A DNA stretch of 22,489 bases from a virus (taxonomy: Duplodnaviria > Heunggongvirae > Uroviricota > Caudoviricetes). The notes below the pieces were generated by a model. It saw only the letters and a list, made by a program, of their open reading frames with translations. It was not told the origin of the DNA and did no database searches. Numbering within the stretch: the first letter of the stretch is position 1; the number at the start of each line of letters is the position of its first letter. Below, one piece after another: positions 2,416 through 7,062 of this stretch. A program made the translations under genes and the position numbers. The stretch lies in the IMG/VR virus record IMGVR_UViG_2778261450_000009, positions 1 through 22,489 of that record. One strand, given 5' to 3'.

Positions 2416-2504
2416 AATGGACAACCTCAAAAAGAATCTTTTATACTTTCCCACGAGGATTTTCTCCGTACTCACTACTCACAATTTCCTCTTTGACGTG
2501 AAAA

Positions 2505-2549
2505 CTAAAAACCCCGGACTGTTCCAGCAGCCGGGGTTTTGTTTTTTTA
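2505..2549. terminator. Bidirectional rho-independent terminator
   Basis: Stem CCCCGG...CCGGGG flanked by AAAAA upstream and TTTTGTTTTTTTATTT downstream on the plus strand, so a U-tract follows the hairpin on both strands. Confidence 0.65.
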
Positions 2550-2828
2550 TTTACTGCCCTGGGTGCGGCATCTGGCTATTTCATTCCTGGCTTTAGTGTC
2601 ACCGCGACAGATACAACGAACCGTGTCACCCGCCAGCGTAGTGATATAGGCCTCATCCGTTTTTTCCACCGAAATGCATGGCACATTTCCATCCCGGCAA
2701 TACTCCACCTGGGCAGCAAGGTGAGTGTTGCGCGGGTAAAATTCCAGGCGATACATATTCCCCAGAACATGCACTTCTTCAACCTGGCGCCCATCTTCCG
2801 TTACCGTGATTTTTTTCAGCGCGTACAT
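2547..2828 (-). CDS. Hypothetical protein (93 aa)
   Basis: ATG at 2828 (MYALKKITVTEDGRQVEE...) preceded by GGAGG at about 5-nt spacing; bracketed by terminators on both sides. No hydrophobic segment. Confidence 0.55.
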   Translation of the reverse strand: MYALKKITVTEDGRQVEEVHVLGNMYRLEFYPRNTHLAAQVEYCRDGNVPCISVEKTDEAYITTLAGDTVRCICRGDTKARNEIARCRTQGSK

Positions 2829-2857
2829 ACGTACCTCCGTTCTTTCGTTTTTTGAGC

Positions 2858-2884
2858 AATAAAAAAGCCGCTCATGGCGGCCCT
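2858..2884 (-). terminator. Rho-independent terminator downstream of the endolysin gene (minus strand)
   Basis: Minus-strand GCCGC-catga-GCGGC followed by TTTTTTATT. Confidence 0.6.
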
Positions 2885-2898
2885 GTATGTTTTGCAAG

Positions 2899-3276
2899 CT
2901 ATCGCTTCAATTGAAAATGTGGGCCGTCTTTAAGCGTCCGCCAGTCCCCGCCCCATTCGATGGCTGTTCCCAGCTCTGCGGCAGCCTGCTTAAATGCCTG
3001 CGCGATTTTCTCGTACAGAGGCCAGTCCCATGACACCTGGCTGCCAACCCAGGCAACAACATCCACCGCATCACCGGTCAGGTGGCGGCTGTTCATGGTC
3101 TGGCTTTTCCCTTCCGCGACCAGCTGTTTCTGGCGTTCTTTCGTGCGCAGCCCTTCCGTAATACCGAAATCAACCTCCGTCAGCTCCAGCGCACGGCGAA
3201 CGACAGCAACCAGCTGTGGTTTAACGCCCTCCAGATTCTTTTCGCTGCGACGACTGAATCTGAATTTACCCGACAT
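2899..3276 (-). CDS. Endolysin, peptidase M15-type (L-alanyl-D-glutamate / D-Ala-D-Ala peptidase fold)
   Basis: Contains SRHLTGDAVDV (SxHxxGxAxD) and a C-terminal GDWRTLKDGPHFQL motif typical of M15 endolysins. The ORF-track start is GTG at 3282; ATG at 3276 has GAGGTG upstream. The upstream gene's stop lies 2 nt before this ATG. Confidence 0.8.
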   Translation of the reverse strand: MSGKFRFSRRSEKNLEGVKPQLVAVVRRALELTEVDFGITEGLRTKERQKQLVAEGKSQTMNSRHLTGDAVDVVAWVGSQVSWDWPLYEKIAQAFKQAAAELGTAIEWGGDWRTLKDGPHFQLKR

Positions 3277-3278
3277 AT

Positions 3279-3554
3279 TCACCTCAATAATGGAAAGATT
3301 TTTGTGACGTTCCCGCGCGCGCGTATCACCAGCACGCAGAACAGCAGATTAAAAAACACTTCAAGCCAGCCCGTTGTTAACGGGCGACCACACAGATAGC
3401 TGAGGGGCGCAAAGGCATACAGCAGCATCAGCAGCCAGGCCAGCCATGACATCAGCGGTTTATGTCTGGAATCACGGCGACGATAAAAAAAGAGCGTCAG
3501 CACGATAACCGTGCTTAACACCACATTCAGTAATCCGGGAAGGTTACTTAACAT
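3279..3554 (-). CDS. Small membrane protein (91 aa, 2-3 predicted TM segments); holin or antiholin candidate
   Basis: MLSNLPGLLNVVLSTVIVLTLFFYRRRDSRHKPLMSWLAWLLMLLYAFAPLSYL... with a strong GGAGGAGG RBS. Sits immediately upstream of the endolysin and overlaps the end of the preceding membrane-protein gene. Confidence 0.6.
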   Translation of the reverse strand: MLSNLPGLLNVVLSTVIVLTLFFYRRRDSRHKPLMSWLAWLLMLLYAFAPLSYLCGRPLTTGWLEVFFNLLFCVLVIRARGNVTKIFPLLR

Positions 3555-3936
3555 TGCCGCCTCCTCCACCCCGCAGGCGGGAGAACAGGCCGGACACCAG
3601 CGATGCAATATCCTGCTGGTGGATGAACGAGAGAATCTTCACCGACACCACCGCCACCAGCACCGCACACAGTGCATCCGCCGATGTACCGTCATAACCT
3701 GTTTTTGATGCAATCCAGGCTGACAGCACATGCGCACCCAGCACGCCAACGATAAACGACACCAGAAAATGCGCCGCCACACGCCAGACAGAAATCTTCT
3801 GTGGTATCGTGGCCACAAACAGCGCCCCTGCGAATGCACCAAACACAATCCCGAAATCCGTTCCGGTAAACAGCCCGAATACCGTCGCCCCACCGAGCGC
3901 CGCGGCCGTGCCGGAACCGGATAAGGGTTCAGACAT
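3544..3936 (-). CDS. Membrane protein (about 130 aa, 3-4 predicted TM segments); putative holin
   Basis: MSEPLSGSGTAAALGGATVFGLFTGTDFGIVFGAFAGALFVATIPQ...; GGAG RBS before the ATG at 3936; Gly-rich C-terminus. First gene of the lysis cassette. Confidence 0.6.
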   Translation of the reverse strand: MSEPLSGSGTAAALGGATVFGLFTGTDFGIVFGAFAGALFVATIPQKISVWRVAAHFLVSFIVGVLGAHVLSAWIASKTGYDGTSADALCAVLVAVVSVKILSFIHQQDIASLVSGLFSRLRGGGGGNVK

Positions 3937-3950
3937 ACTTTTTCTCCTGT

Positions 3951-3976
3951 CAATAAAAAGGGCCACCAGCGGCCCG
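3951..3976 (-). terminator. Rho-independent terminator (minus strand) between the TerB-like operon and the lysis cassette
   Basis: Minus-strand GGGCC-gctggt-GGCCC followed by TTTTTATT. Confidence 0.6.
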
Positions 3977-4023
3977 TAAAAAACACCCTGTCAAAGGTAC
4001 CCGCAGATGCCTTTTGTTTGGTG

Positions 4024-4176
4024 TTATTCATATTTGTGCAGTAAAGGCCAGAGAACGACCATCACCATCGCCACCAGCACGCCATCAGCCAGCACCGACA
4101 TCAGCCGTCCGGTAAAATCCACTGCCACTACCAGAAACAGCAGGATGGCAGCCAGCACAAGGCGCGCACTTTTCAC
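4024..4176 (-). CDS. Candidate 50-aa hydrophobic protein, GTG start overlapping the TerB-like stop
   Basis: Not in the ORF track. Hand translation: VKSARLVLAAILLFLVVAVDFTGRLMSVLADGVLVAMVMVVLWPLLHKYE; GGAG 8 nt upstream of the GTG; ends just before the terminator. Confidence 0.3.
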   Translation of the reverse strand: MKSARLVLAAILLFLVVAVDFTGRLMSVLADGVLVAMVMVVLWPLLHKYE

Positions 4177-4598
4177 AGGTACTGCTCCAGCGGCAACTGC
4201 AGCGCCTGCGCAATTTTCTTGAGCTGTGCTTCTTCATCCGGACCAATGCCATCCTGGTCTGCAATATCCAGACACAGGCACAGCACATCAACCGCTTCGG
4301 CGGTTCCTGCCACATCAGCCAGTTCTCGCAAAGCCTGAGCATTCGCACTACGAGGCGATGCTTCATAACGGGCGCGGATATTCGCGCTCATCTGGGCAAT
4401 CTCACCGGAGAACGGCGCAAAGGCAGGAAGTGCTGCAATGGTTTTCTCCAGTACCGCAATTTCTTTCGCGTCACAGGTGTCGTCAGCGTATGCAATGGAA
4501 TACGCGCCCCAGACGGTCGCCTCCACCGCGTCGCGGTTCTCCATTTTCTTCACTTCAGTAATAGCCTTACGGGTTTTCTTTTTGAAAATACCAAACAT
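4173..4598 (-). CDS. TerB-like (tellurite-resistance TerB / DjlA N-terminal type) domain protein, about 141 aa
   Basis: ATG at 4598 with AAGGAAA RBS. Two copies of the TerB-like pattern (IAYADDTCDAKEIAVLEKTIAAL and CLCLDIADQDGIGPDEEAQLKKIAQAL). The ORF-track start at 4751 is an upstream extension without an RBS. Confidence 0.6.
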   Translation of the reverse strand: MFGIFKKKTRKAITEVKKMENRDAVEATVWGAYSIAYADDTCDAKEIAVLEKTIAALPAFAPFSGEIAQMSANIRARYEASPRSANAQALRELADVAGTAEAVDVLCLCLDIADQDGIGPDEEAQLKKIAQALQLPLEQYL

Positions 4599-4796
4599 CG
4601 TGACTTTTCCTTTTAGTGGGTGAGCCTCGCCCCGGGATGAGCAGCCCACAGAGAAAGTCACACTGACCATCCCGTAAGCTCCCCCCCTGAAAGGCTCTGT
4701 GGTTTTTTGATGTGCGCCGGGCGTGGCGCAGATATGAAAAAGGCCACGCACGTGCGCAGCCTGATAATTTTCTGAATCAGCGGAGTGTCAGCTGGT

Positions 4797-5420
4797 TTAC
4801 CCTTTCACTTCTGAAAGGGATTTTTTGCCAAACGTCACTTCATTCATTGACATAAGTATGCTGTCTTTAATGTATTCGCACACTTCATTAATTTTTGCGT
4901 TGGTATCCACATGCGAAAATGTCCTGGCCTGATAACCATCAACCGAAATCGTCATGTTGTCGCCATCAAGTAACAGAATACTCACTGTAATATTCACACT
5001 TACAGACTGGCGGGGATCATCATCAACAACCGTATATAAATTAAAAGTAACCCCATCCTGAAAATCTACCTGCAAATCCTCCGGTTTCTCACAACAACTA
5101 TCATGAGAAAGATAAACATAGGGATGGGAGTTACCGTCAATATCCAGCCATCGTGGTTTCGGCAATGCCAGTGAGTCTTCATAGGTCTTGACCAGCCTTT
5201 TTGCCATATCCCGCAGTCGCTGGATGTACTCCTGTCTGGCCTCCTGAATTTCAGCCTGCTTTTCCCGAATGTCTGCATATGTGATCACAGTCTCAATTCT
5301 CCTGTATACAGAAAAATAAACCATAATAATAGCCAACCGGGAAAAGATGAAAAATGCCATAACAGAACAGGCATTGCGCACGGATAAAAAAATGCCCGTC
5401 ATGAGACGGGCCCAAAGCAT
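4797..5420 (-). CDS. Hypothetical protein, start ambiguous (ATG 5420, ATG 5360 or GTG about 5288)
   Basis: Long ORF with a coiled-coil-like stretch (REKQAEIQEARQEYIQRLRDMAKRL) and an acidic beta-rich C-terminal part. The N-terminal extension is hydrophobic (MAFFIFSRLAIIMVYFSVY); only the GTG start has a clear SD (AGGAGA). Confidence 0.45.
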   Translation of the reverse strand: MLWARLMTGIFLSVRNACSVMAFFIFSRLAIIMVYFSVYRRIETVITYADIREKQAEIQEARQEYIQRLRDMAKRLVKTYEDSLALPKPRWLDIDGNSHPYVYLSHDSCCEKPEDLQVDFQDGVTFNLYTVVDDDPRQSVSVNITVSILLLDGDNMTISVDGYQARTFSHVDTNAKINEVCEYIKDSILMSMNEVTFGKKSLSEVKG

Positions 5421-5470
5421 TCATCGTATAAGAATTAGACAGCGTTTAATTGTATGGTTACTACCAGAAT

Positions 5471-5504
5471 GATTCGTCAGCCTGCAACGTAATTCTGACG
5501 AATC
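5471..5504. repeat. 10-bp inverted repeat GATTCGTCAG / CTGACGAATC with a 14-nt spacer, inside an ORF-poor region
   Basis: Read directly from the sequence. Confidence 0.5.
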
Positions 5505-5732
5505 ACAGACCCCGAAACAGGCAGCGACTCATTCTGATAAAAACCATCCGATGATACACAACGTTAACAATGTAAAAAACAGCACCGAAACTGTAATCAG
5601 TCAGATATTACAGAATGAAGAACAACAAAGGCGCTTGCAAAACCTGTTCTCCGCGAAACTCGCCAGTGCTGAAACGATATGCCTCATTTGTTTACCAGTG
5701 CGGGTAGCAGAAATTACCCTCACACATAAAAT

Positions 5733-5968: not shown

Positions 5969-7015
5969 TTAAAAATCTTTCGTTATTTCTCTGACCGTCT
6001 GATTAAAACGTTCCTCTTCCAGTTCCACGCCAATCGCCCTGCGTCCCAGCGACAGTGCCGCTTTTATTGTCGACCCCGACCCCATAAAAAAATCTGCGAC
6101 CAAATCGCCTGGACGGCTGCTGGCAGTAATTATCTGACGCAACATATCCGCCGGTTTTTCACAGGGATGCTTACCCGGATAAAACTGCACGGGCTTGTGC
6201 GTCCAGACATCCGTATAAGGAACGACAGCCGATACGGAAAAATAACGCCGCAGTGATTTGTATTCCTCCAGCAGGCTGGCATATTGCCGGTTCAGTTCGC
6301 TGTATGTGCTGACCAGCTGGTGGTGTGGCTGCTCCAGTTCACCGCGCTGGTGTTTTTCTGTCACCACACGTGCAAACAGCGCCTGCAGTTTACTGTAATC
6401 GGCCTCATTCGGTAACTGCCACTGACTGGTACCAAACCAGTGCGAAGCCATGTTTTTCTTTCCGGTGGCTTCTGCTATCTGTTTTGACGTTATCCCCAGT
6501 GATTCGCGCGCATCACGAAAGTAAGAAATCAGCGGGGCCATGACATGCTGCTTAAGCTCGCGCCCCTTTGCTGCATAACCGTCACTTTTGGGCTGGTATG
6601 GCCCCTGATAATGTTCGGCAAACAGAATGCGCTCTGTTGCCGGGAAATACGCCCGCAGGCTTTCCTTGTTGCACCCATTCCAGCGTCCGGACGGCTTCGC
6701 CCAGATAATGTGGTTCAGCACATTAAAGCGTTCACGCATCATGATTTCGATATCAGATGCCAGGCGATGACCACAGAACAGGTAGAGACTTCCGGCAGGT
6801 TTCAGTACCCGCCAGAACTGTGCAAGACACTGGTCCAGCCATTTCAGGTAATCATCGTCCCCCTTCCACTGGTTATCCCAGCCCTCGGGCTTCACTTTAA
6901 AGTATGGCGGGTCTGTGACTATCAGATCGACAGAGTTTTCCGGTAAGGTCCGGATAAATTCCAGGCAATCAGCGTTGATTAACTCACAACTGGATATTTT
7001 TACAGTATTAGCCAT
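5969..7015 (-). CDS. DNA methyltransferase, beta-class (N6-adenine or N4-cytosine), orphan
   Basis: DPPY catalytic motif (LIVTDPPYF) near the N-terminus and an AdoMet-binding FxGxG motif (FFMGSGST) near the C-terminus, which is the beta-class motif order. No adjacent restriction endonuclease recognised. Confidence 0.85.
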   Translation of the reverse strand: MANTVKISSCELINADCLEFIRTLPENSVDLIVTDPPYFKVKPEGWDNQWKGDDDYLKWLDQCLAQFWRVLKPAGSLYLFCGHRLASDIEIMMRERFNVLNHIIWAKPSGRWNGCNKESLRAYFPATERILFAEHYQGPYQPKSDGYAAKGRELKQHVMAPLISYFRDARESLGITSKQIAEATGKKNMASHWFGTSQWQLPNEADYSKLQALFARVVTEKHQRGELEQPHHQLVSTYSELNRQYASLLEEYKSLRRYFSVSAVVPYTDVWTHKPVQFYPGKHPCEKPADMLRQIITASSRPGDLVADFFMGSGSTIKAALSLGRRAIGVELEEERFNQTVREITKDF

Positions 7016-7052
7016 AGATCAATAAGCACTTCTCTGATAGGCTCATACCGCT

Positions 7053-7062
7053 TTTGCGCAAA
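7053..7062. promoter_or_regulatory. Perfect palindrome TTTGCGCAAA about 40 bp upstream of the methyltransferase start
   Basis: Read directly from the sequence. Its position in the intergenic region between a terminator and the methyltransferase gene suggests an operator or promoter-associated site. Confidence 0.3.

Follow-up and report, generated by a model that had tools for sequence, protein, structure and literature searches.

The closest described counterparts of the locus reported here are the tciA-tciB(-tciC) genes of phage P1 (NC_005856, gp074-076), reportedly annotated by Lobocka et al. in 2004. The locus is a pair of overlapping genes on the minus strand of a 22,489-nucleotide stretch of viral DNA (IMG/VR record IMGVR_UViG_2778261450_000009, positions 1 to 22,489; hereafter the window), which as a whole is a phiP27-like lambdoid prophage of E. 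coli. Judged by sequence, the pair is P1 tciA/tciB, already catalogued and named in RefSeq, and is not new; a preliminary description of this DNA, which saw a TerB-like protein followed by a small hydrophobic open reading frame (ORF), had missed this identity. As in P1, TciA is 141 amino acids (aa) long, the genes stand in the same order with an overlapping stop and start, and both are accessory genes; identity to the P1 proteins was 87% for TciA and 52% for TciB. P1 has a third small gene, tciC, downstream, whereas the window is without it: tblastn of P1 TciC against the window gave chance matches only (best E = 0.87, elsewhere in the window), and among 93 tciA loci TciC was present in one P1-like locus only (L012). 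In P1 the genes neighbour tRNA genes within the early ban operon, which C1 controls, and have no conserved leader, whereas the pair in the window is inserted as 680 bp into the late region, immediately before the holin genes, and has a conserved leader.

Other TerB proteins have been reported to be membrane-associated, and the defence systems Bunzi, Shango and Dionysus, which have been proposed to carry out "membrane surveillance", also contain them. These systems resemble tciAB in placing a TerB-domain gene beside a membrane-protein gene (the TerB protein DinB with DinC, a pore-forming membrane protein), but they are bacterial and larger, with helicase, MAEBL or pore-forming-toxin components, whereas tciAB is carried by phages, including virulent ones, and no family in PADLOC-DB v2, which includes Bunzi and Shango, matched TciA or TciB at E <= 1. 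TerB of the ter operon (terZABCDEF; IncHI2 R478, Klebsiella) shares with TciA the Pfam profile, an all-helical fold and acidic loop motifs. The TciA match is weak, however, and the ter operon partner is the large TerC membrane protein rather than a 50-aa peptide; none of terZ, terA, terC, terD and terE was found in the window, nor is any listed in the RefSeq annotation of the near-identical prophage of E. coli EC11, whose tciAB pair is 99.8% identical in DNA. DjlA consists of an N-terminal transmembrane helix, a TerB-like domain and a C-terminal J domain, so that there, too, a TerB-like domain stands beside a short membrane anchor. DjlA holds its J domain and membrane helix in one chain, whereas here the putative membrane segment is a separate downstream gene; no DnaJ or J domain was found in TciA, whose single Pfam match is TerB. 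Finally, the stx2e cassette of phage phiP27 is like tciAB in its slot between Q and the holins, its phage type, and the hairpin element and holin pair that follow; it is expressed with the late operon, and its genes are unrelated to tciAB.

The TerB assignment made in the preliminary description stood. TciA scored 28.6 bits against Pfam TerB (PF05099; cut-off 24.4, E = 1.9e-6), in two stretches, and TciB scored 58.4 bits against DUF3927 (PF13064; cut-off 25, E = 7e-16); because of these matches both ORFs lie far beyond chance. In PHROGs, TciA belongs to family 632 ("tellurite resistance") and TciB to family 1470 ("TciB-like", E = 8e-25), both genes being filed under "moron, auxiliary metabolic gene and host takeover", and no NCBIfam model matched either protein. 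The EC11 annotation calls them "tellurite resistance TerB family protein" and "DUF3927 family protein", and at least 80% of window positions 3900-4800 is contained in 155 of 5426 complete E. coli genomes. The DUF3927 family is small, with 48 representatives among 1.84 billion proteins when clustered at 50%. Its TciB signature (R5, D20-F21, S27, D31, W43-P44) was at least 90% conserved in every column except W43 among 30 diverse members, with R5, D20, F21, S27, D31 and P44 near-invariant.

To count linkage, we used the 92 loci with sequence downstream of tciA out of a set of 93 loci with TciA relatives (13 one-genome-per-species contigs and 80 viral contigs). The results showed an intact DUF3927 ORF directly 3' of tciA in 91 of the 92. 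Across genera, the stop and start of the 91 linked pairs overlapped as GTGA in 88 cases and by 1 nucleotide (nt; TAATG or TGATG) in 3, and the GTGA overlap, which is also that of the window, implies translational coupling of tciB to tciA. Even the most divergent members of the DUF3927 family (40-47% identity) follow a TerB gene (141-148 aa), likewise with stop and start overlapping. The ratio of nonsynonymous to synonymous substitution rates (dN/dS) of tciB against the window copy was 0.18-0.5 for most pairs and 0.76 at most, dS being saturated between genera. By these comparisons tciB, the small ORF of the preliminary description, is a conserved gene under purifying selection. It is also the more constrained partner between distant phages: identity to phage Pollock was 54% for TciB vs 29% for TciA, and to locus L016 it was 68% vs 45%.

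The pair is a tightly linked two-gene unit that is widespread among enterobacterial phages: lambdoid prophages and P1-like phage-plasmids carry it, as do N4-like virulent phages and phages whose genomes include a DNA polymerase A module. Escherichia phage Pollock (NC_027381, L102; Schitoviridae, N4-like) carries tciAB at 2491-3102, in its early region, and similar N4-like Salmonella and Shigella phages also carry it. N4-like phages are virulent. Elsewhere the pair occurs in replication modules that also encode DNA polymerase A and a PD-(D/E)XK nuclease, in phage Evi between Q and an S-type holin, and in P1 within the ban operon, which is repressed by C1. A role during lytic growth fits all these settings, which argues for such a role rather than for lysogen conversion. 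In P1, tciA, tciB and tciC were scored as non-essential by CRISPR interference (PMC10695390), the tci operon has been lost in roughly half the members of one P1 subgroup, and transcript changes in an hfq mutant have been reported; published mentions of the tci genes otherwise repeat the homology-based label.

Several further observations were made in this locus set. Contig labels include Citrobacter, Enterobacter, Erwinia, Rosenbergiella and Scandinavium. The sequence PP818812, labelled "Actinobacillus phage vB_Apl-pPE4" (L004), shares 90.6% identity with this stretch of E. coli prophage, and contigs labelled Pseudomonas lundensis, Kocuria sabuli and Bacillota metagenome-assembled genome (L009, L017 and L005) carry tciA at 88-97% identity; the Actinobacillus, Pseudomonas, Kocuria and Bacillota labels likely reflect contamination or mislabelling rather than true host range. 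In three viral contigs (L037, L038 and L041, at about 6423-7260) the tciB sequence is divergent from about codon 35 onwards and the holin follows some 700 nt further on, a pattern that suggests an insertion disrupting tciB. In two other loci (L033 and L085) an additional sequence of about 1 kb separates tciB from the holin.

We modelled TciA with AlphaFold2 using 22 homologues, and the model showed six helices (mean predicted local distance difference test, pLDDT, 87; predicted template modelling score 0.83). Comparison of this model with known folds found TerB structures, indicating a TerB-like all-helical fold (2ou3, 2h5n). Sequence searches of the PDB (phmmer and hmmsearch, with protein and profile) matched no TerB structure to TciA, which is why we regard TciA as a divergent TerB-fold protein. 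The model contains two helix-acidic loop-helix units (residues 22-55 and 102-132), with the loops ADDTCDAKE at 38-46 and ADQDGIGPDEE at 113-123 after the first and fifth helices; D39, D43, E46, D114, D116, G117 and E122 were invariant or nearly so among 22-24 homologues. The acidic loop motif of the TerB family (aDG..(D/E)) is thus present in TciA as sequence, and metal or ligand binding is putative. These two units, together with the Pfam match in two stretches, are what stands of the two TerB-like repeats in the preliminary description: there is one TerB domain, and an internal sequence repeat was rejected, the half-against-half local alignment scoring 20 against a shuffle mean of 21. TciA has no hydrophobic segment (grand average of hydropathy, GRAVY, -0.07). 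Its residues 1-21 (MFGIFKKKTRK...) are basic (7 K/R), conserved and modelled at low confidence, and this tail could bind the membrane or a partner. TciB is strongly hydrophobic, as had been described (GRAVY +1.50).

The layout of the locus is given in Table 1. All described features were present, and all lie on the minus strand. The GGAG proposed as Shine-Dalgarno (SD) sequence of tciB does precede its GTG, but it is not conserved as such, becoming GGAT or GGAC in other genera. A 192-aa version of the tciA ORF starting from GTG 4751, taken from a program-made ORF list, was ruled out as coding because homologous leaders show 1-nt indels there.

Table 1. Features of the tciAB locus and its flanks (window positions).
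Feature	Position	Strand	Description
tciAB cassette	4707..4028	minus	680-bp insert relative to related prophages: 109-nt leader, tciA and tciB
Cassette leader	4707..4599	minus	conserved GC-rich non-coding stretch with long imperfect hairpin and tciA SD AAGGAAAA
tciA	4598..4173	minus	141-aa ORF; ATG at 4598, TGA at 4175-4173; read from sequence
tciB	4176..4024	minus	50-aa ORF; GTG at 4176-4174, TAA at 4026-4024; DUF3927 family
Stop/start overlap GTGA	4176-4173	minus	4 nt common to tciA and tciB; read from sequence
GGAG	4188-4185	minus	8 nt before tciB GTG; doubles as tciA codons Leu-Glu; read from sequence
Terminator-like hairpin upstream of cassette	4762..4741	minus	9-bp stem, then TTTTTCAT
Left-flank hairpin	4727-4708	minus	GCGCC-ACGCCC-GGCGC, then ACATCA; also at empty sites
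Pre-holin element	4027..3955	minus	two tandem hairpins, each followed by a U-run; supplies tciB stop and terminators
First holin gene of lysis cassette	3936..3544	minus	directly downstream; Pfam Phage_holin_8 E = 1e-23, PHROG 198 holin

The preliminary description had taken the pair for acquired cargo, and comparison with related prophages agrees with this. In the prophages of E. coli CE0032f and APEC O1, the same holin region is without tciAB and the two flanks are joined with 6 nt between them: the left-flank hairpin ending CACATCA is followed by these 6 nt and then by ATAACACC, which occupies 4027-4020 in the window, and two terminator hairpins. The left flank was compared with the empty sites by BLAST and local alignment; it aligned better than 2000 of 2000 shuffles, and its hairpin in APEC O1 has the compensated form GCGTC/GACGC. 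Because the left-flank hairpin and ATAACACC stand only 6 nt apart at the empty sites, the cassette was delimited as in Table 1, with the stop codon of tciB supplied by the flank, outside the insert. The pair thus forms a discrete insert between conserved neighbours, as in a moron in the sense of Hendrix and colleagues. Its base composition matches the lysis genes rather than setting it apart (GC 54.6% in the cassette, 53-58% in the adjacent lysis genes and 46.7% as the window mean), and a promoter and a terminator of its own were not found, the promoter search being a sigma-70 consensus scan and the terminators being present at empty sites as well.

Of the 5426 complete E. coli genomes, 540 contain the pre-holin element, whether or not tciAB is present, and the element precedes two holin families, the Phage_holin_8 type and the EssD type. 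Its first hairpin has its own U-run and is followed by the second (3975-3960), which reads GGGCC-GCTGGT-GGCCC and then TTTTTATT. Hairpins with U-runs do lie downstream of the pair, as had been noted, but since the element also exists in prophages without the pair, these terminators belong to the flank and not to tciAB. A 2026 preprint describes PasA and PasC, which adjoin holin genes near TerB genes in Stx-like prophages. These prophage small RNAs were rejected as candidates for the pre-holin element, as the published probes had no match in the window with up to 3 mismatches, and the published genes lie on the strand opposite to the holin.

In phiP27 (NC_003356, L003), stx2e occupies the same site, and next to it the 3' end of tciB survives over about 90 nt, with one nucleotide deleted. 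The stretch at about 4080-4230, which aligns to window positions 4118-3937, holds this remnant, between stxB2e and the holin, and the same hairpin element follows it. The toxin cassette therefore replaced most of a tciAB cassette there, which dates the arrival of stx2e in that slot after that of tciAB.

The leader of the cassette is strongly conserved. The aligned upstream region of about 150 nt had a mean column identity of 82% in 20 loci from several genera, and the leader was nearly invariant even in loci whose TciA alleles are 45% identical in protein. Folding of the single sequence gave a long imperfect hairpin (z = -2.6), and folding of the alignment paired an invariant CCUUU with the tciA SD. 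The latter fold contained 3 covarying pairs (covariation term -0.83 kcal/mol), and with covariation this weak we do not claim a structured RNA. At Rfam gathering thresholds nothing was found in the leader, a permissive scan of 3900-4900 gave sub-threshold chance matches only, and no tRNA genes were found.

A scan for promoters, which covers the sigma-70 consensus only, found no site within 4600-4763 or inside the cassette. Promoter-like sites in the region occurred at chance frequency (3 found vs 2.3 expected); a weak one at 4791-4764 (9/12 matches) lies upstream of the terminator-like hairpin 4762-4741 and is shared by the closest relatives only, and its predicted start falls within the stem of that hairpin. 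The 3' arm and T-run of this hairpin are conserved in most loci, and terminator-like sites in 3400-5600 numbered 10 vs 2.4 expected from shuffles. Because terminators stand on both sides and no promoter was detected, late transcription antiterminated by Q would be the simplest reading of tciAB expression.

We consider it probable that tciAB is a coupled pair, dispensable to the phage and made in lytic development, that guards or modifies the inner membrane of the infected cell. tciA would yield a soluble cytoplasmic TerB-fold protein, and tciB, translated by coupling at the GTGA, a 50-residue hydrophobic helix inserting in the inner membrane. The two proteins would act together there, TciB as the membrane-embedded partner and TciA as a cytoplasmic TerB module tethered both through TciB and through a basic N-terminal tail of its own. 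Their synthesis would mostly follow induction and depend on antiterminated late transcription, like that of stx2e at the same site in phiP27. Such a pair might, for example, exclude superinfecting phages or colicins, or adjust the envelope and division state. The membrane-linked function that the preliminary description thought possible is plausible, given what TciB is made of and what has been published on TerB; the observations of that description are confirmed and its interpretation is supported.

Several points weigh against this account. The AlphaFold2 model of TciB is one continuous helix (residues 2-47, pLDDT 93), that is, a predicted single 46-residue helix with no clear transmembrane topology or two-span hairpin, and the first hydrophobic stretch, residues 6-19, is not long enough to cross a membrane; on the model, TciB could combine one span with a helix at the interface, tilt as a single long helix or fold into a hairpin. 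One natural TerB-DUF3927 fusion protein (P0181) speaks for the pairing, but it comes from one contig only and may owe its existence to a frameshift error. The weak site at 4791-4764 could give some expression in the lysogen, and a promoter or regulatory RNA could be hidden in the conserved leader, given that the scan covers the sigma-70 consensus. The position of the pair directly before the holins in many lambdoid prophages could point to a lysis-related rather than a general role. We found no experimental work on the function of TciA or TciB in the literature.

The TerB family membership of TciA, the PHROGs category of both genes and the discrete insert with a terminator on each side would also suit a lysogenic-conversion moron, expressed from the resident prophage and conferring Ter-like traits such as tellurite or colicin resistance or phage inhibition. 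We regard this as unlikely. The window holds no other ter genes, and TerB alone is not known to suffice for the tellurite resistance of the ter operon. The promoter-like site at 4791-4764 would favour expression in the lysogen, but no promoter was detected inside the cassette and this site is not conserved beyond the closest relatives. Moreover, the pair occurs in strictly virulent N4-like phages and in early lytic operons, where lysogen conversion cannot be the purpose, and in P1 it lies in a C1-repressed operon. A tellurite or stress phenotype from tciAB is unlikely because other ter genes are absent and the pair is also carried by virulent phages and early lytic operons.

An accessory role in lysis timing, in which TciB would act as a small membrane protein with or against the neighbouring holins and TciA would regulate TciB, seems less probable still. 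The pair lies directly upstream of the holins in most lambdoid loci, even where the holin is 46-48% identical (L007, L008, L015), and precedes a different holin family in phage Evi, but the slot between Q and the holins is a general cargo site, as stx2e in phiP27 shows, so that position alone is weak evidence. Co-transcription with the lysis genes would be expected under Q antitermination, yet prophages with the same holins lack the pair, and the pair lies far from the lysis genes in P1, Pollock and the phages of the polymerase A type. The very small size and hydrophobic nature of TciB and its conserved acidic residues D20 and D31 would suit such a role, but its sole matches were DUF3927 in Pfam and PHROG 1470 in PHROGs, with no holin family in either. 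That tciA alone is functional and the 50-codon ORF an untranslated by-product between tciA and the terminators is highly improbable, for although the ORF is very short, starts with GTG and has a GGAG that is not conserved as SD, it matches DUF3927, is intact with conserved start geometry in 91 of 92 loci, has a dN/dS well below 1 and is better conserved than TciA in Pollock.

Transcription on the minus strand runs through Q, a DNA methyltransferase gene, a hypothetical gene, tciA, tciB, two genes that match holin families in Pfam and PHROGs, and an M15 peptidase endolysin gene. The hypothetical gene upstream of the cassette (4797-5420, minus) encodes a 207-aa protein of PHROG 5091 with a hydrophobic N-terminus and TraQ-like matches below threshold only; its GC content of 42% is unlike that of the cassette. 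Between the Q gene (9156-9539, minus) and the late genes lies an OmpC-type porin gene (7812-8975, plus; NCBIfam OmpC, 530 bits), which resembles porin cargo known from other lambdoid prophages. At gathering thresholds, the only Rfam matches in the window were a C4 antisense RNA, at 80.9 bits, and the adjacent isrK, at 56.9 bits (13811-13998, minus), which suggests a P1/P7-type immunity module (c4/ant) in this lambdoid prophage.

For this window itself there is little new, as the genes are present in RefSeq, Pfam and PHROGs and are close homologues of P1 genes; what is new here are the linkage counts, the selection on tciB, the insert boundaries, the phiP27 remnant and the occurrence in N4-like phages and early operons. 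Beyond the account of a coupled pair at the inner membrane, we tentatively put forward a more specific idea, to which we give rather little weight. tciAB might be a minimal two-part phage membrane system in which TciA senses membrane or ion disturbance and TciB is the effector, or the anchor to a conserved host target; it would exclude superinfecting phages or colicins, or blunt a membrane-acting host defence, during lytic growth, and the leader would control translation. If true, this would be the first function for DUF3927 and for phage-borne TerB proteins and would link tciAB mechanistically to the TerB-containing systems Bunzi, Shango and Dionysus. With two genes in 680 bp and a 50-residue partner, tciAB would offer a simple model for TerB action at the membrane.

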